The translations under genes were made by a program, and so were the position numbers. The notes under the pieces are model-generated. The model was given only the letters and a program-made list of their open reading frames with translations, was not told the DNA's origin and did no database searches. This document shows positions 3,862 to 39,269 of a stretch of 64,000 nucleotides of DNA, in pieces. The DNA comes from Gallionellaceae bacterium (lineage in GTDB: Bacteria > Pseudomonadota > Gammaproteobacteria > Burkholderiales > Gallionellaceae): the NCBI GenBank assembly GCA_009773615.1, contig WSYA01000001.1, forward strand, positions 26,536 to 90,535, read 5' to 3'. Positions within the stretch are counted from its first letter, which is position 1. Each line of letters opens with the position of its first letter.

Positions 3862-3950
3862 GGTGTGTGGTGGGCGTGGAAATTTGCGCGCAAGATTAGC
3901 AGGAATGGGGCGCAATCCCAAAATGTTTTGCGGTTAAAGCGGTGCGGGCT

Positions 3951-5252
3951 TCAGGATTCGAAAAAATGCACCCGGTTGCGCCCGCCCTCTTTGGCTTGGT
4001 ACATCGCCATGTCCGCCCACTTGATGAGGTCGTTTTCGCTGTTTTCGTGGTTGATGAACATAACCACGCCTATGCTCGATGTGCAGCGGTGTTCGACTAT
4101 GGACGGCTCCGTTTCGCCCTCATGCATGACGCTCAGTAGATAGGGTTCGGCCAGAATAGAACGGATCTTTTCGGCCACCACCCCGGCCTGAAAGCGGGAT
4201 GACTCTTTGTCGGCAGTCAATTCGTTCAGCATCACGATGAACTCGTCGCCGCCGAAACGCGCCACGGTGTCCTGCTCGCGCACGCAGTTGCTGATGCGGC
4301 GTGCCACTTCTATCAGCAGCAGATCGCCGACATGATGGCCGTGCGTATCATTGAGCGGCTTGAAATTGTCGAGATCGATAAACATCAGTGCGGCATAACG
4401 CCCGCTGCGCTTGCTGGCCGATCTGACCTGCCCCAAACGGTCGAGCAGCAGGCGGCGGTTGGGCAACCTGGTCAGTGTGTCGTAAAAGGCCAGATTGCGG
4501 ATTTTCCCCTCCTGCCGGCTGAGCGCATCCAGCATCCGGTCCAAATGCCGCGCGAGTACGCCGATTTCGTCTTCGCGCCCGACATCCGAGCGCAACTCCG
4601 CCTGCCCGTGTTCTACTTCGGCTGCGACATGCATCAGATGATTGAGGCCGCGCGTGAGTCTGTGTGCCAGCGCCAGCGCGACTGCCGATACCGTCAATAC
4701 GGCAAACAGCACGAATTCAAGCCACGCCTCGGTGAGATTGGCGAGGTTTTGATTCGCCGAGTCGCGCGACATTTCGACGCGCACCCATCCCAGATGGCGG
4801 CCGCTGGACAAGATAGGGTGCGCGACGGCAAGCTGATTTTTTTGATTTATCAGGATCACGGTATTTCTGGTCGTTGAGGCCAGCATGTTGCGGCTTATCG
4901 CGTCGGTCACAAAAAATCCCGCCTCGGCGGCGTTGGTCGATGCCAGCACTTCTCCGCGCATGTTCAGAAAATAGGCGCGTTGCAGGTCCGGTGTCTTGGC
5001 AAATCCCTGCACCAATTCCTGCAATCCGACCAAGTCGTTGGCCAGTGTCCACGAAGTGCCGCTGATGGTAAGCGCAAGTGCCAGCGAGGTAGCGCGCTCC
5101 TCCGAGGATCGGTACAGCGCGTCGCGTTGTTGTTCGAGCACCAGATAGCCGAATCCCAGCATCAATGCGAGCGAAGCCAGCGCGAAACCGAGGATTAGTT
5201 GTCTTCGTATGGAAACTCGCCACAGCAAGCTGATGTATCGCCCCGGTTTCAT
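3951..5252 (-). CDS. Membrane sensor diguanylate cyclase (two TM segments flanking a periplasmic domain, HAMP-like linker, GGDEF)
   Basis: 433 aa. Contains YDTLTRLPNRRLL and the RFGGDEF active-site motif, with hydrophobic segments near aa 20-40 and 175-197. Confidence 0.85.
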   Translation of the reverse strand: MKPGRYISLLWRVSIRRQLILGFALASLALMLGFGYLVLEQQRDALYRSSEERATSLALALTISGTSWTLANDLVGLQELVQGFAKTPDLQRAYFLNMRGEVLASTNAAEAGFFVTDAISRNMLASTTRNTVILINQKNQLAVAHPILSSGRHLGWVRVEMSRDSANQNLANLTEAWLEFVLFAVLTVSAVALALAHRLTRGLNHLMHVAAEVEHGQAELRSDVGREDEIGVLARHLDRMLDALSRQEGKIRNLAFYDTLTRLPNRRLLLDRLGQVRSASKRSGRYAALMFIDLDNFKPLNDTHGHHVGDLLLIEVARRISNCVREQDTVARFGGDEFIVMLNELTADKESSRFQAGVVAEKIRSILAEPYLLSVMHEGETEPSIVEHRCTSSIGVVMFINHENSENDLIKWADMAMYQAKEGGRNRVHFFES

Positions 5253-5262
5253 AGCATGCCTT

Positions 5263-6156
5263 TCAATATTCGATGTGACGCACGGTCTCGGAAAAAACCT
5301 TCAGGTATTCCTGAACCGGCTGGTATACCTTATCCGTAGCCGCTTCGAATTTGGATATCGGCAGACGCGCGAGCATCTTGCGACCCTCCGCGCTGCTGTT
5401 CAGGCCAAACAACAGCGCGGCGAATTTTGCGGTTAGCTCTGCGGGCACGTCCTTGCGCACCACCCAGCTGTTGTTGGGTAGCGTTCCCGTCTGCCATTTG
5501 ATCTCGAGTTGGTTGGCCATATCTGGATGCTCTTGCGTGAAGGTTATCCAAGGAACGGGCCAAGTCGCGCCCGCCGCTGTATGGCCGCGTAGCACGTTCA
5601 TGATTGCGGACTCCTGCGAGCCGACGTACAGATTTTCAATATCGCGATTGATGTCGATGCCGTGCGTGTGCAGATAGTATTGCGGCATGATGGTCGCAGC
5701 CAGTGCCGAGGGAGCGGGGTAAGCGACCTTTTTGCCTTTGAGATCGCCCACCTTGCTGATGCCGCTATCCTTGCGCACGAGAATGATGCCGCGAAAATTT
5801 TCGTCGTCCCCCATCTTGCCGAACACGCGGTAGCCGTATTTGAGCGAGCGCACCGTCTGGTAGGGGTTGGGCATGGCGAAATCGAAATGGCCGCTGTAGA
5901 GTTTTTTGTCGAACTCTTCGTAGTTGCGCGAGGCTTCCAGTTTCAGACGTGTTCCCGGAATGCCTGCTTCAATGTAGCTTACGATGGGGTCATATACCTC
6001 GAATAAACGTTTGGGATTGTGTAGGGGATGGATGCCGACCACATACTCCTTTACGTTATCCGTTGCCTGTCCGCTGAAACTGGGCTGGAGGTTTTCCTCC
6101 TGTTTTCCGCATCCGGCCAGCAGTAAAATTACCAGTACCAAGCTCAGTCGTTGCAT
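5263..6156 (-). CDS. PhnD-like (phosphate/phosphonate type) ABC substrate-binding lipoprotein
   Basis: ORF 5263..6210; likely start is MQRLSLVLVILLLAGCG (lipobox) at 6156. The fold-level resemblance to PhnD-type binding proteins is a recollection and has not been searched. Confidence 0.65.
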   Translation of the reverse strand: MQRLSLVLVILLLAGCGKQEENLQPSFSGQATDNVKEYVVGIHPLHNPKRLFEVYDPIVSYIEAGIPGTRLKLEASRNYEEFDKKLYSGHFDFAMPNPYQTVRSLKYGYRVFGKMGDDENFRGIILVRKDSGISKVGDLKGKKVAYPAPSALAATIMPQYYLHTHGIDINRDIENLYVGSQESAIMNVLRGHTAAGATWPVPWITFTQEHPDMANQLEIKWQTGTLPNNSWVVRKDVPAELTAKFAALLFGLNSSAEGRKMLARLPISKFEAATDKVYQPVQEYLKVFSETVRHIEY

Positions 6157-6324
6157 CGCGATCTCCCTTGCCGTTCTTGAATCTGCATTTGGCCTGCTTT
6201 CAACGGGCATGCTACTCCTGTGTAGACTGTCACTTCAAGCGAAGGTTTTGCAGGCAAGGTTTCTTAATTCATAAATTCCTGCAATAATCGAAGCACGAAA
6301 CAATATTACTGAATTGGATTGAAC

Positions 6325-9406: not shown

Positions 9407-9754
9407 GAAGCTGGCTAGACAGTCGCCGCGTCCGCAAGGGCGGGGAGGAAAGTCCGGGCTCCGCAGAGCAAGATGCCGGTTAATGGCCGGACGCCGTGAG
9501 GCGATGGAAAGTGCCACAGAAAATACACCGCCTAAGTTCTTTCGGGAAACGGTAAGGTTGAAATGGCGAGGTAAGAGCTCACCGCGCTGATGGCAACATC
9601 AGTGGCAGGGTAAACCCCATCTGGAGCAAGACCAAATAAGCAGGCTATGACGTTGCTCGCGTCGTCTGCGGGTAGGTTGCTTGAGCGTCAGGTAACGAAA
9701 CGCCTAGAGGAATGACTGTCCACGACAGAACCCGGCTTACCGGCTGGCTTCACC
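9407..9754 (+). ncRNA. rnpB: RNase P RNA, bacterial type A
   Basis: GAAGCTGGCTAGACAGTCGCC...GGAGGAAAGTCCGGGCTCC...ACAGAAAA...GGTAAGGTTGAAA...GGTAAACCCCA...GACTGTCCACGACAGAACCCGGCTTACCGGCTGGCTTCACC is nearly colinear with E. coli M1 RNA. The P1 helix closes between 9407-9416 and 9743-9752. Confidence 0.93.
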
Positions 9755-9944
9755 CCTTTTCTTGCCGGACTTTCAGTTTGTTGAGTACCCCCTCTGCTAG
9801 TATCAATTTCTTAAAATATCTAGACCCTTCATAACAAACAACTTTAGCTTGCTTGCGCAATCTATTGCTTTTTAAGTATATTTATTTCATCTTAACTAAT
9901 CGCTCTAACTCATTGTCCCGTAACGAAAAATCCTGTTTTTTGGC

Positions 9945-36008: not shown

Positions 36009-36101
36009 CCAGTTAAATACAAAAGGCAGTAGCTCGTGAACACTCCTTTTAGACATCTCAAATGAGATACTGTGGGCCGATTTTCTGAATGGAAAATAGT
36101 G

Positions 36102-36329
36102 ATGACTACCTCAACAATGATTCATGTGCGCGTTGATAATGAAGTTAACACGCAAGCAGCGGAAGTACTAGAAGCGATAGGTCTATCAGTTTCGGATGCG
36201 GTAAGGCTTTTTCTGAAACGCGTGGTGGCAGAGCAGGGTTTGCCCATCGAGCTCAAAGTGCCGAACGTTGAAACTCGTGCCGCAATGGAAGAGTCGCGTG
36301 CCATGATTCGCGCGCGCCGCGCCCGCTAA
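36102..36329 (+). CDS. RelB/DinJ-family antitoxin-like protein, no adjacent toxin, possibly 3'-truncated
   Basis: MTTSTMIHVRVDNEVNTQAAEVLEAIGLSVSDAVRLFLKRVVAEQGLPIELKVPN is the DinJ/RelB ribbon-helix-helix pattern. The stop codon TAA (36327-36329) is the first three bases of the flanking inverted repeat. Confidence 0.7.
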   Translation: MTTSTMIHVRVDNEVNTQAAEVLEAIGLSVSDAVRLFLKRVVAEQGLPIELKVPNVETRAAMEESRAMIRARRAR

Positions 36330-36659
36330 ACCGTTCGTCCTGACTAGACGTAGCCGTATAGAAGGATGGGCGAAGCCCGCTGGTTTGTTTATTCAAAGTC
36401 AACATCGTCGGGGGTAGCCCGACAGCTAGTCACTTTCTTTTGCTTCGCCAAAAAGAAAGTAACCCAAGAAAAGGCGACCCCGGTTTGCCGCCCCTTCGGG
36501 GTTCCCTCGATCATTCGCAAACAAGCGGGGCTGCGGAACTCGCGCTACGCGCTCAGACAGTCCTCGCCTAAACCTCCGCTTGTTTGCGAATGATCGAGGC
36601 GGCGCACAGGGGAGGGAAAATCAAATTCAAAATCTAAGAGTGGGCACTTTGTGCCCACT
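36327..36659 (+). repeat. Structured repeat unit, left copy (IR-L, 333 bp)
   Basis: It shares long identical blocks with the reverse complement of 37889..38263, for example CGTCGGGGGTAGCCCGACAGCTAGTCACTTTCTTTTGCTTCGCCAAAAAGAAAGTAACC. It contains at least five hairpins. Confidence 0.85.
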
Positions 36660-36746
36660 TGACTAAGCGTGATGCGCGTAGTCAAAACAACTCTATTCCG
36701 GTACATTCTATTCTTCTTGCCCAACTTAACTTAGCCAATATTGATT

Positions 36747-37880
36747 ATGTATAACTTCGACTACATTACATCAAAAGAATTTCGAAACTCATTAGAGGCT
36801 GACTATACCGAAATGCATAGCTGTGCCGATGTGAAGGCTTGGAAAAGCGTGCAGGTGCTAGCAGGTAGCATCATTGAAACTTTGCTAATTGACTATTTGT
36901 CCGCAACGAAAAATACTGAAAGGCCATCCAAGGATCCCCTAAAGTTAGATTTGGCAGAAGCTATTTCAATATGCAGAAAAGAGAAGGTTTTGTCTGATAG
37001 AACGGCTGATTTATGTAGCGTTATTAAATCCTATCGGAATTTGATTCATCCTGGTCGTATGCTGCGCCTAGGTGAACAAGCACCAGATCAAGGAAGTGCA
37101 ACAATTGCAACTGCCTTAATTGAAATGATCACAAATGAGCTTGCTGAAACTATGCGTGCATCGGTCGGCCTCACTGCTGAGCAGATACTTTCAAAAATTC
37201 AGCGCGACGCAAATTCATTGAATATTTTGAAACATCTATTGGTAGAGGTTTCGGAGCATGAAAAAATACGTCTGTTACTGGAGTTAATACCATCTGCTCA
37301 TCAAGAGGTTATTGAAGATGATTCAATAGTTGAATTTGATGAGTTTGTTAAACGAAAAAAGCACCTTGAGTTGGCTTACCAAGTCATCCTTGATTCAGTA
37401 AGCGATGAAGCTAGGAAACGCATAGCATCAGAATATGTTCGTGTACTTAGAGAAGAGGATGGGCAAACGGTGCAGCGCTATGGAAAGGCATTTTTTAAGC
37501 CACGTGATATGAAATTCTTATCTGGATCATCTAAATTGATGGTGAGCGAGCATTTGCTTGGAAATATGCCTCCGGTTTTTAATTCGGAGTCCTCTTTTAA
37601 TGTAGCTACAGGTCTTGCTGGTTATCTTGATTCATCGTTAATTTCAAAATGGCTAGACCCGTTTGTACGCACACTTGTTTCCTCGCTTGATGATTCTATT
37701 AAGACAAGATGTCGAGCTACGTTAATTATGGAAACGTGGTTAATAGGCAATGAAAATTTACAAGCATTATTGAAGCGATTGGACACATATATCAGCATCT
37801 ATAAATCAAATAATGACTCTGTTAAAAGTGAATTGATCCAGTCAATAAGAAATGAAATTGAAATAGATAACACAATTTAG
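36747..37880 (+). CDS. Hypothetical protein, 377 aa, AT-rich; N-terminal HEPN-like helical domain (tentative) and C-terminal helical-repeat region
   Basis: Long intact ORF (TTG at 36741, first ATG at 36747) in a region where spot-counted lines are 25-45% GC against about 63% in the flanks. The motif SVIKSYRNLIHPGRMLR resembles the HEPN R-x(4-6)-H motif but is one residue short. No obvious Shine-Dalgarno. Confidence 0.7.
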   Translation: MYNFDYITSKEFRNSLEADYTEMHSCADVKAWKSVQVLAGSIIETLLIDYLSATKNTERPSKDPLKLDLAEAISICRKEKVLSDRTADLCSVIKSYRNLIHPGRMLRLGEQAPDQGSATIATALIEMITNELAETMRASVGLTAEQILSKIQRDANSLNILKHLLVEVSEHEKIRLLLELIPSAHQEVIEDDSIVEFDEFVKRKKHLELAYQVILDSVSDEARKRIASEYVRVLREEDGQTVQRYGKAFFKPRDMKFLSGSSKLMVSEHLLGNMPPVFNSESSFNVATGLAGYLDSSLISKWLDPFVRTLVSSLDDSIKTRCRATLIMETWLIGNENLQALLKRLDTYISIYKSNNDSVKSELIQSIRNEIEIDNTI

Positions 37881-37888
37881 CAAAGAAT

Positions 37889-37926
37889 GATGGGCACGAA
37901 GTGCCCATCGTGTGGTTTTGGGTTTT
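37889..37926 (+). terminator. Intrinsic terminator 9 nt after the orphan ORF (also the inner hairpin of IR-R)
   Basis: GATGGGCAC-GAA-GTGCCCATC followed by GTGTGGTTTTGGGTTTTG. Confidence 0.65.
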
Positions 37927-38263
37927 GACTCTCTATCCCCTGTGCGCCGCCGAGTAGCGCAGGCTGGTCAGGGGATTTCGGCGAGGACTGTCTGAGCGCG
38001 AAGCGCGAGTTCCGCAGCCGCCTGACCAGTCGAGCAACGCAGGGAACCCACGAAGTGGGCGGTAAACCGGGGTCGCCTTTTCTTTGGTTACTTTCTTTTT
38101 GGCGAAGCAAAAGAAAGTGACTAGCTGTCGGGCTACCCCCGACGGTTTTGCATTTGATTTAAATTGTTGGGTTACGCTGCGCTAACCCAACCTACAAAAC
38201 CGGCGGGCTTCGCCCATCCTTCGATACACCGCGCTATGCGCGGCACTCAGGACGAACGGTTTA
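37889..38263 (-). repeat. Structured repeat unit, right copy (IR-R, 375 bp, inverted)
   Basis: Its reverse complement aligns module by module with IR-L. It carries an extra hairpin TTGGGTTACGCTGCGCTAACCCAA (38167-38190). Confidence 0.85.
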
Positions 38264-38264
38264 C

Positions 38265-39269
38265 GTGAAATTAAAAATTAGAGATGCCGCTTTGAATACA
38301 CAAACCGAAAAGATAGTAGAAGTCTCCGCTGCCGTTCTGCAACGCCCCGACGGCTCCTTCCTCCTCGCGCAACGTCCCGCCGATAAAATCTGGGCCGGCT
38401 ATTGGGAATTCCCCGGCGGCAAAATCGAGCCGGGCGAAACAGCGCATCACGCTTTGGTGCGCGAACTGCGCGAAGAGTTGGGCATCGAAGTGCAAACTGC
38501 CTATCCGTGGCTTACGCGAGTGTTCACTTATCCGCATGCCACGGTGCGTCTGAGTTTCTTTCGCGTGACAGAGTGGAGCGGGGAGATGCATCCGCATGAA
38601 GGGCAGGAGTTTGCTTGGCAAGAGCCCCTCTCCCTAACCCTCACTCAGGGAGAGGAGAGAGGACGGTTATCGGTTGATCCTATCCTCCCCGCCAACGCCC
38701 CCATCCTGCGCGCGCTGGAATTGTCCTCCTTATATGCCATCAGCAATGCCGCCGAGCTGGGCGTGGAGCCGTTTCTGGAAAGGCTGAAAGCCAAGCTGGA
38801 TATGGGTTTGCGGCTGGTGCAGTTGCGCGAAAAGAATCTCTCCCGCGACGAGTTGCGCGCGCTGGCGCGTCGCGTCGTGGCATTGGCTCATGCACGCGGT
38901 GCGAAGGTGCTGCTCAACGGCGATGTGGCGCTGGCGCAGGAGGTGGGTGCGGATGGCGTGCAGCTGACCGCCACGCAGCTTGCGGAGCTAACTGAACGCC
39001 CCGTTCTGGATTGGTGTGCGGCGTCCTGCCACAACGCGGAGGAGTTGCGCCGTGCGGAAGTATTGGGTTGCGATTTCGCGCTGTTGAGTCCTGTGTTGCC
39101 GACTAAATCACATCCGGGTGCACCGCATCTGGGCTGGGATAACTTCGCCTCGATTGCGGCGGGTTCGTCTATTCCGGTGTATGCGCTGGGCGGTTTGACT
39201 AGCGACGATATGCAAAGCGCATGGCAGCGCGGCGCACACGGTATCGCCTTATTGCGTCAGGCTTGGTGA
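38265..39269 (+). CDS. NUDIX (MutT-like) hydrolase fused to a ThiE/TENI-like domain
   Basis: 334 aa. The Nudix box is [24 protein letters not shown]. The C-terminal half (LVQLREK...GADGVQL...YALGG) resembles a thiamine-phosphate synthase fold. The GTG start lies 2 nt after IR-R; a TTG at about 38292 is an alternative. Confidence 0.8.

Follow-up and report, generated by a model that had tools for sequence, protein, structure and literature searches.

How can two copies of a repeat keep the pairing of their stems after the stems themselves have diverged in sequence? The question is raised by a palindromic cassette element of 1.9 kb at positions 36327-38263 of a 64,000-nucleotide stretch of Gallionellaceae DNA (assembly GCA_009773615.1, contig WSYA01000001.1, positions 26,536 to 90,535 of the forward strand), which is called the window below. 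In this element, two inverted units of ~270 nt surround a single gene. The initial annotation had ascribed the compensatory base changes between both copies to selection on a secondary structure, formed either by an RNA or by single-stranded DNA (ssDNA). Strong covariation appeared once 75 units were aligned, and a single-strand fold under selection, with pairing maintained over divergent sequence, is strongly supported by it. As to function, the reading that we favour, at a probability of about 0.45, is that the units may be outward-facing RNA modules for termination, insulation and stabilisation that double as homology arms for cassette exchange.

Fold and distribution of the repeat unit

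The arms of the element (~36327-36660 and ~37889-38263) show 81% column identity when aligned, and their conserved blocks are interrupted by variable palindromes. In the left inverted repeat (IR-L), a perfect 24-bp stem formed by CCTCGATCATTCGCAAACAAGCGG and its reverse complement encloses a core of 40 nt. The core of the right inverted repeat (IR-R, 37980-38019) has one difference, and its stem is CTGGTCAGG (37964-37972) / CCTGACCAG (38021-38029). Two matches to the 40-nt core pattern are present in the window, where 0.00 would be expected. The hairpin that we call H3 changes from CCCC-TTCG-GGGG on the left to CCCAC-TTC-GTGGG on the right (38047-38059), and hairpin H5 changes from AGTGGGCAC/GTGCCCACT to GATGGGCAC/GTGCCCATC with compensated substitutions. 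All three differences are found in the sequence as the initial annotation had described them. The parts of both units are listed below; outward denotes the strand read from the centre of the cassette towards its flanks.

36393-36660, minus strand (best-folding, outward): structured unit, left copy (IR-L), recognised by inverted repeats, alignment and covariation
36407-36428, minus strand: hairpin H1, GTCGGG (36407-36412) with CCCGAC (36418-36423), loop TAG (36415-36417) and loop partner CTA (36426-36428)
36432-36474, minus strand: three-strand segment, made of X (ACTTTCTTTTG, 36432-36442), Y (36450-36460) and Z (36465-36474)
36478-36492, minus strand: 5' half of the long-range helix, CCCCGGTTTGCCGCC, which pairs with 36598-36612
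36491-36501, minus strand: hairpin H3, whose outward-strand loop is C(GNA)G
36505-36528, minus strand: helix P1, long version, 5' strand (24 bp with 36576-36599)
36529-36568, minus strand: core, with helix P1b (GGCTGCGGA/TCCTCGCC), an asymmetric internal loop (AACTC/TCAGACAG) and the P2 hairpin GCGC-TAC-GCGC
36576-36599, minus strand: helix P1, long version, 3' strand (partner of 36505-36528)
36598-36612, minus strand: 3' half of the long-range helix, GGCGGCGCACAGGGG, paired with 36478-36492 according to RNAalifold and covariation
36639-36659, minus strand: left hairpin H5, AGTGGGCAC TTT GTGCCCACT, followed by CTTAGATTTT on the minus strand and flagged in a terminator scan
37910-38165, plus strand (outward): structured unit, right copy (IR-R, the commonest type), with H1 and its T-tract at 38123-38157

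A search for the exact core 20-mer GCGCTCAGACAGTCCTCGCC in a collection of species-representative genomes returned at least 119 stretches, numbered here as loci with the prefix L. The matches listed belong mostly to Gallionella, Sideroxydans, Sulfuricella and other Nitrosomonadales, and the remaining ones to Gammaproteobacteria, Nitrospirales, Polyangia and Coriobacteriia; isolates among them are Sulfuricella sp. T08, Thauera, Aromatoleum, Uliginosibacterium, Chitiniphilus and Olsenella sp. An293. Identity of the 20-mer itself across phyla is an ascertainment effect of the exact-match search. The partner half-site GGCTGCGGAACTCGCG, which was not part of the search pattern, adjoins the 20-mer in most of the matches listed. 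In Olsenella/Atopobiaceae (Coriobacteriia) the halves of the core occur in the opposite order, and a long stem closes the small hairpin of the proteobacterial form (P2), which amounts to a circular permutation.

According to BLAST searches with the window arms, the whole unit of ~250-270 nt is conserved, and within its body of ~205 nt the order of modules is fixed in more than 75 copies. A mosaic of unrelated palindromes, of the kind known as bacterial interspersed mosaic elements (BIMEs), had been contemplated as the observation that might undo the claim of a selected fold. That description suits the peripheral pieces only, namely a cargo-side hairpin and the outer module, and fails for the body.

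Several copies depart from the common plan. In those from Nitrospirales (L019, L078, L091, L099) the unit plan is kept, with a stem around the core and then a T-rich/A-rich hairpin preceded by GGTTTTGG; P2 is nearly gone and the third strand is shorter. The L113 unit (5999-6294) has an insertion of ~90 nt between H1 and X, and the L061 unit (3870-4080) has lost P1 and the core and retains H1 and the triplex segment described below. Hence, modules can decay independently.

To measure covariation, a structure of 46 pairs was specified by hand and scored in the 75 aligned units against 500 shuffles, and partners slid by 1-3 columns served as control. Paired cells made up 95.8% of the total, against 89.5 ± 0.2% after shuffling. 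Pairs with changes on both sides numbered 19 (11.9 ± 1.7 in shuffled alignments), cells with changes on both sides 202 (53.5 in shuffled alignments), and the covariation score was 0.180 compared with 0.070. None of the 500 shuffles reached the observed value of any of these four measures, and in the slid controls pairing fell to 35-48% only. The alignment is partly hand-anchored, most sequences come from metagenome-assembled genomes (MAGs), and the copies are related, so the cell counts overstate the number of independent events. The comparison of many homologous units, which the initial annotation had proposed as a check, bears out a selected fold.

Individual helices contribute as follows. 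P1 occurs as 26 distinct sequence pairs across 67 units, and its long IR-L version is also present in L088, L101, L108, L028, L071 and L113; the P1 difference between IR-L and IR-R is one between two alternative versions of a single helix and not a stem compensated step by step. In H1, pair 3/17 is U-A in 41 units and C-G in 34 of the 75. The X/Y hairpin and P2 were both recovered by RNAalifold. The long-range helix, CCCC(G)GTGCGCCGCC / GGCGGCGCAC(A)GGGG, shows a CCCT to AGGG double change in six units; RNAalifold pairs columns 73-76 with 259-262 and 81-87 with 247-254, and variants with GGTGC give a continuous helix. H3 variants elsewhere are either CCGC-TNC-GCGG or CCCAC-TTC-GTGGG. P1b covaries in other core types (G-C to C-G, G-C to T-A), with one fully Watson-Crick version, CUGCGC/GCGCAG. 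Invariance across core types is limited to AACTCGC and GCTC[AG][AG]ACA, and P2 ranges from 3 nt to a hairpin of ~40 nt.

Two other readings of the arms were discarded. A local hairpin, CCTGCGC...GCGCACAGG, replaces the long-range helix in the minimum free energy structure of single sequences, but a G-to-C change that is common in its 5' strand has no compensating change in the partner strand. Protein-coding use of the arms (open reading frames, ORFs, at 36366-36593 and 37877-38110) was ruled out by indels of 1-2 nt between copies and by the pairwise compensatory variation.

Two tertiary features are also suggested by the alignment. The H1 loop (TAG or TTG) covaries with the downstream CTA or CAA, pair 11/22 being A-U in 39 units, U-A in 33 and other in 3. 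Loop and downstream triplet constitute a candidate H-type pseudoknot, which by loop-length reasoning would be sterically reasonable on the outward strand only. In the three-strand segment, Y pairs with X, and its sequence is mirrored by Z. Of 17 distinct variants that were parsed, 13 match the mirror at 8/8 positions and four at 7/8; at other offsets the match drops to 2-6 of 8. These scores cover five distinct purine patterns, and three shorter ones, taken from the alignment, keep both the X/Y pairing and the mirror relation. A role of Z as alternative Watson-Crick partner would need a direct repeat, which does not fit. As a mirror repeat is the requirement for a third strand parallel to the purine strand, the segment suggests an intramolecular triplex of the pyrimidine motif. 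On the outward strand the order is 5'-Hoogsteen pyrimidines, loop, Watson-Crick pyrimidines, GCGAAGC loop, purines-3', and the predicted triplex would contain seven or eight U.A-U (T.A-T) triples and one C+.G-C.

The unit matched nothing in the libraries searched. Rfam 15 on the whole window gave no family at the gathering score at the element, its only match being the bacterial class A RNase P RNA at 9407-9755 (plus strand, 313 bits). Permissive Rfam scans of 36200-38400, of 37880-38170 and of the Coriobacteriia hairpin returned only sub-threshold matches to hairpins of microRNA type, and a scan for transfer RNA and transfer-messenger RNA found nothing. The search for a known RNA family recommended by the initial annotation was therefore negative at gathering and permissive thresholds alike. 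The unit is also absent from IMG/VR viral contigs, PLSDB plasmids, GenBank phages and E. coli genomes, all of which were searched; the core strings were not found in a full-text search of 8 million papers, and topical searches did not reveal a description of the repeat family. We file it as a new variant of extragenic structured repeats.

Strand asymmetry and a possible role in transcription

Which strand folds? When P1 is read inward, 668 cells are Watson-Crick, 53 are A.C and 2 are G.T (67 units). These A.C cells, equivalent to G.U when the outward strand is read, come from several distinct stems. In 75 of 78 units the outward strand has the more stable predicted fold, the mean difference being -8.1 kcal/mol under RNA parameters and -3.6 kcal/mol under DNA parameters; for the right arm of the window the z-scores are -2.2 (outward) and -1.3 (inward). 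Next to P2, a U.G/C-G alternation is seen on the outward strand only. Altogether, the evidence that the folding strand would be the one leading outward from the cassette is good but not unanimous.

T-tracts are oriented in the same manner. Five or more T within 10 nt after H1 are found in 68 of 78 units in the outward direction and in 0 of 78 inward; after H5, the figures are 32/62 and 6/62. A scan of the element region detected 10 terminator-like sites where 3.1 were expected; among them are the two H5 copies and H1 of the right arm, all in the outward direction. H5 falls 0-30 nt past the stop codon of the cargo gene in the cassettes compared, and on the left, H5 and CTTAGATTTT look terminator-like for transcripts exiting the cassette leftward. 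H5 and H1 are thus predicted intrinsic terminators by the usual definition, in which a G+C-rich hairpin precedes a T-tract on the strand that is transcribed; the orientation of the T-tracts speaks for a role in RNA or transcription.

The favoured reading can be spelled out as a series of steps. A single-stranded unit would fold into H5, a long-range helix around H3 and P1/core/P2, a three-strand segment, and H1 with a possible pseudoknot. It would act mainly as RNA, on the strand transcribed outward from the cassette centre, with H5 and H1 as two leaky terminators of intrinsic type bracketing a compact domain. In transcripts that read through, a 3' end made of triplex and hairpin/pseudoknot should resist 3' exonucleases. 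A pair of units would terminate and stabilise transcripts arriving from both directions, and neighbouring genes (relB and NUDIX-ThiE in the window) would be insulated from a foreign, possibly toxic gene driven by a platform promoter. Their length, strong conservation and presence at many sites might also allow the arms to serve as homology arms through which cargos are exchanged or lost by recombination; given their inverted orientation, recombination between the two arms of one element inverts the cargo and does not delete it. Transcription, termination, stabilisation, triplex formation and exchange are all proposed here from sequence.

The proposal of a protective 3' end has a parallel. In the triple helices at the 3' ends of ENE (element for nuclear expression) and MALAT1 RNAs (PMC7583470, PMC13541005), two U-rich tracts and a downstream A-rich tract lie near the end of the transcript. 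On the outward strand of the unit, such tracts could form seven or eight stacked U.A-U triples plus one C+.G-C near the end of a putative transcript, and by analogy this suggests protection from 3' exonucleases. Differences are that the three strands are contiguous in the unit, whereas an ENE is a U-rich internal loop that clamps a distant tail, and that the unit is bacterial and repeat-borne, with a triplex proposed from covariation only. In a 2026 review of RNA triple helices, the passages on bacteria and prokaryotes give riboswitches and a group II intron as the only bacterial examples.

Several observations speak against this reading. A common wobble of the long-range helix, T81.G254, favours the inward strand. 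Nearly every hairpin loop of the outward strand is a C(GNA)G triloop, GCGAAGC among them, and these are best known as exceptionally stable loops of DNA, not of RNA. The z-scores are modest. No promoter was found between H5 and the structured domain, either by scan or by inspection; if H5 is an effective terminator, the domain behind it will rarely be transcribed and selection at the RNA level will be weak. Finally, a function as terminator or stabiliser does not explain the invariant AACTCGC/GCTCARACA nor the permuted recurrence of the core in another phylum.

Cassettes, cargos and sites

The arrangement seen in the window is repeated in iron-oxidising bacteria of the Gallionellaceae and in their relatives, adjacent units being convergent in 49 of 57 cases. 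In 25 unit pairs the inner gap is only ~60-235 nt, and 24 pairs enclose one ORF each, varied in sequence and found in either orientation. The enclosed DNA has 38-50% GC in 23 of the 24 pairs. The exception, at 60% GC, is L007 (1692-3651), where a doublet surrounds a DDE transposase of the IS4 type with host-like composition; it resembles an insertion sequence (IS) that landed in the middle of an element, not a cargo. Among the cargos are Mrr-type nucleases, DUF2971, DUF4145, RelA_SpoT, Schlafen/AlbA_2 and KilA-N proteins, and many have no Pfam match; judged from their families, they would be defence-like. The suggestions of the initial annotation that the units could be guides or antitoxins found no support, since the cargo changes from element to element.

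The inner part of the window element reads as follows.

36679-36707, plus strand: promoter-like motif upstream of the cargo start, TAGTCA (36679-36684), 17 nt, TACATT (36702-36707)
36747-37880, plus strand: cargo gene, 377 aa, 39% GC, DUF4145/HEPN-like
37889-37909, plus strand: right hairpin H5, GATGGGCAC GAA GTGCCCATC, then GTGTGGTTTTGGGTTTTGAC, 8 nt past the cargo stop codon; predicted terminator of the cargo

The low GC content of the window cargo stands out in a genome of ~58% GC. The protein harbors the motif RNLIHPG (Rx4H); it has a 100% match in a Gallionellaceae MAG, and 306 homologues. Pfam and PADLOC gave no match, and the DUF4145 label rests on the names that the sources give to some homologues. 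A Paraburkholderia homologue neighbours HEPN_AbiU2, Arc and integrase genes.

The motif TAG[GCT]CA, 17 nt, TACATT is found in other cassettes too, again in the interval from H5 to the start of the cargo. Decamers resembling CCGGTACATT lie just inside a unit in 14 of 15 occurrences, at a median of 35 nt from the start codon. We infer that the motif is a promoter, albeit one that a consensus promoter scan did not flag in its TAGTCA/TACATT form. Conservation ends 3-4 nt past TACATT. At the other boundary, 13 of 24 cargo genes end in TAG, often abutting H5 (e.g., window 37878-37880, L112, L056, L087); this ending, unexpected for low-GC genes, may indicate that the boundary of the cassette is fixed. 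The platform thus seems to supply promoter and terminator, only the 5' untranslated region and the ORF being variable.

When core motifs were paired separately, those less than 650 nt apart (e.g., L032, L042, L076, L089) included no pair with two A-type cores (0/22), compared with 12 of 21 among wider, cargo-holding pairs. Long near-perfect palindromes are unstable, and the lack of close A+A pairs suggests selection against them. Such instability would account for the P1 difference between the arms of a single element.

Occupancy of orthologous sites was compared between genomes:

Site upstream of the NUDIX-ThiE gene (that of the window): unit present in L009, L046, L117 and L016; L076 is an empty A+B doublet
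Site next to mutY: four different cargos, in L028, L056, L035 and L058; L028 and L058 share both flanks
Site of L061: filled in L061 and empty in L089 and L068; both flanks common to all

At the NUDIX-ThiE site, L009 contains a different cargo of 288 aa, and its DUF815 flank matches as well. In genomes with orthologous sites, units are 86-93% identical and adjacent genes 71-77%. Non-orthologous units are as similar as orthologous ones, an equality which suggests strong constraint or homogenisation. In another Gallionella, a homologue with 61% identity to the window cargo also has units on both sides and occupies a different site, and short metagenome contigs with the window cargo break off within units.

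Flanking genes point toward the element in 97 cases and away from it in 47; 19 sites are convergent and 3 divergent, and the Coriobacteriia hairpins also lie between convergent genes. This placement is typical of terminators or of repetitive extragenic palindromic (REP)-type elements. In the window, the left-hand neighbours of the element are a DUF815 ATPase and a RelB antitoxin, and its right-hand neighbour is a NUDIX-ThiE fusion. The RelB-family gene (36072-36329; Pfam RelB, E = 2e-16) has no adjoining toxin gene, and its TAA stop codon sits in the first bases of the outer inverted repeat (36327-36343). Outside the unit, the element is completed by a module that belongs to a separate repeat family:

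36327-36392, no strand: outer inverted-repeat module, left, TAAACCGTTCGTCCTGA ... GGATGGGCGAAGCCCGC
38166-38263, no strand: outer inverted-repeat module, right, with an extra REP-like hairpin, GTTGGGTTACGCTGCGCTAACCCAAC, absent from the left copy

In a BLAST coverage profile, this outermost portion of the window arms (65-100 nt) is common to only 7-13 other loci. This outer repeat also includes a GGGCGAAGCCC hairpin, so that palindromes are nested within palindromes. The reverse strand of TAAACCGTTCGTCCTGA reads ...LRTNG, and we take it to resemble a repeat found in many phyla.

Weighing the alternatives

Cassettes with sharp boundaries and a conserved fold admit more than one explanation. An unlikely one, though the strongest of those that place the units outside the favoured scheme, is that they are folded ssDNA substrates similar to integron attC sites or to REPs and REP doublets (REPINs), whose internal loop would be read by an unlinked recombinase or by an HUH/tyrosine transposase that moves the cassette. 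Conservation of structure over sequence, together with an invariant loop and a variable terminal hairpin, would suit such a substrate. So would the C(GNA)G triloops and GCGAAGC on the better-folding strand, given their general reputation for stability in DNA, and the triplex-compatible segment, which would form in DNA too. Single-gene cassettes with sharp limits (3-4 nt past TACATT at the promoter-like end, close to the stop codon at the far end) and turnover of cargos at fixed sites are likewise expected of it.

Integron cassettes offer one comparison (PMC8352920, PMC8618304). They are single genes, often of defence type, that turn over at a fixed platform, and attC sites keep structure more than sequence, have a variable terminal hairpin and lie where stop codons approach the cassette boundary. 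However, the R'' RYYYAAC and R' GTTRRRY boxes were not seen by eye in the core or in H5, and no integrase was found in the window region. The units are inverted and not direct, each element has one cargo and arrays are lacking; a promoter-like motif of the platform lies right upstream of each cassette, and many dispersed one-cassette platforms are observed instead of one array. More generally, no recombinase or transposase goes with the units, the sole transposase among the 24 cargos being the IS4-type insertion. A tblastn search of 0.9 Mb of loci for a REP-associated tyrosine transposase (RAYT) yielded no match, a weak test with an E. coli RAYT as query. Folding of both arms would require opposite strands, the elements are site-stable across speciation and not scattered, the oriented T-tracts would be left without a role, and the unit is missing from the plasmid, phage and IMG/VR sets.

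REPs, BIMEs and REPINs (PMC3116915, PMC2817692) resemble the unit in being extragenic, multi-copy imperfect palindromes in inverted doublets, a description that applies to the loci and convergent pairs counted above. They also favour gene 3' ends and gaps between convergent genes, and are plausible terminators or messenger RNA stabilisers. In several loci the cargo-side hairpin GTAGGGTGGGCA...TGCCCACC resembles a classical REP. REPs have a conserved GTAG head; in the unit, a GTAGGGTGGGCA head is found only in the peripheral H5 of some copies. A REP is a hairpin of 20-40 nt, whereas the unit comprises ~270 nt and at least seven helices, with a long-range helix and a candidate pseudoknot and triplex. 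REPs are lineage-specific and the unit core is shared across phyla; unlike REPs, unit doublets enclose promoter-ORF-terminator cassettes at sites conserved across species.

A second explanation, which we consider quite improbable, is that the core, by itself or together with the remainder of the unit, constitutes a novel functional RNA, either a self-cleaving ribozyme or a binding site for a universal protein, that processes or marks the 3' region of transcripts. About 15 invariant nt in an asymmetric internal loop, placed between freely covarying helices, are reminiscent of ribozymes and protein-binding motifs. The variable length of P2, the occurrence of the motif in Beta- and Gammaproteobacteria, Nitrospirales, Coriobacteriia and Polyangia, and the retention of the second half-site, outside the search pattern, in the permuted Olsenella/Atopobiaceae form are all in agreement with this view, as is a tandem G.A plus U.G/C-G pair beside P2 that is possible on the outward strand only. 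On the other hand, Rfam gave no match even at permissive thresholds, cross-phylum identity partly reflects the way in which the copies were found, and B- and C-type cores reveal that a large part of the sequence is free to vary.

Specific candidates for such a function were examined by eye against consensus rules. Neither the hammerhead nor loop A of the hairpin ribozyme nor a kink-turn fits the core, and the same is true of sarcin-ricin, attC and Xer/dif readings. For the hammerhead, the consensus CUGANGA/GAAA is not matched by CUGUCUGA/GAGU, and the arms are paired with one another. The small self-cleaving ribozymes of Rfam (hammerhead, hairpin, twister, pistol and hatchet) gave no match.

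Equally doubtful is a selfish, non-autonomous mobile repeat, a foldback resembling a REPIN or a miniature inverted-repeat transposable element (MITE), with hairpins kept for transposition and cargos as occasional passengers. In its favour, the units are present in many copies outside genes and form inverted doublets, many of them empty; some are decayed or interrupted (L061, L113), and metagenome assemblies break within them. Mobile insertion cassettes and MITEs with passengers (PMC10969869) do carry a non-transposase gene between inverted repeats, and empty and filled versions coexist. Their arms, however, are transposase sites of 15-40 bp and not structured arms of ~270 nt, and no cognate IS or related transposase was found here. 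No target-site duplication was seen by eye at 36327/38263 or at 36393/38165, and the same sites are occupied across genomes, with units more similar than their flanks. Unlike mobile insertion cassettes, the elements are chromosomal, site-stable and absent from plasmids. A conserved promoter-like motif and a terminator frame the cargo, and a strand-asymmetric fold with oriented T-tracts would be unexpected of transposase ends.

Two further systems hold genes between conserved sequences. The pdif modules of Acinetobacter place a gene between inverted repeats that are 28-bp Xer sites, unlike the ~270-nt structured arms described here. In Neisseria minimal mobile elements, different cassettes occupy the space between the same conserved flanks and are presumably exchanged by transformation and homologous recombination; there, homology is provided by flanking housekeeping genes, and here by portable structured repeats at many sites.

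As for the possibility that the compensated differences between IR-L and IR-R arose by chance or by palindrome turnover without selection on a fold, it might be entertained from two copies alone, where H3 and H5 rest on two or three changes each and P1 is a wholesale replacement, but it is refuted by the 75-unit statistics, the slid controls, the 26 distinct P1 stems and the three-way covariation, and we dismiss it.

A bolder proposal, which goes beyond the favoured reading and which we hold to be rather unlikely, is that the units represent an undescribed class of structured bacterial RNA, with a near-invariant loop that is shared across phyla, can be permuted and would be catalytic or bind a universal factor, and with a 3' domain formed by a multi-layer U.A-U triple helix; pairs of such RNAs would form a dispersed, integrase-free platform for the exchange of single defence genes. 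If so, a large and strongly covarying structured element absent from Rfam would have been added to those known. Two of its features would be rare in bacteria or new to them, namely an extended triple helix close to the 3' end of a transcript and a conserved loop that can be permuted.

One detail of the invariant loop may be of relevance to exchange. Read outward, the loop holds CTGTCTGA (minus strand at 36553-36560, within TCAGACAG, and plus strand at 37988-37995), which matches an 8-mer within one dialect of the Neisseriaceae DNA uptake sequence. We treat the match as a probable coincidence; an uptake-like 8-mer would be relevant if cassettes are exchanged by transformation.

If the reading is right, single genes of defence type can be kept and swapped without an integrase, by means of many small platforms that provide a promoter and a terminator and lie between portable structured arms. 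The breaks that Gallionellaceae metagenome assemblies suffer around these genes would then be explained, and new accessory or defence genes could be found by looking between such arms.

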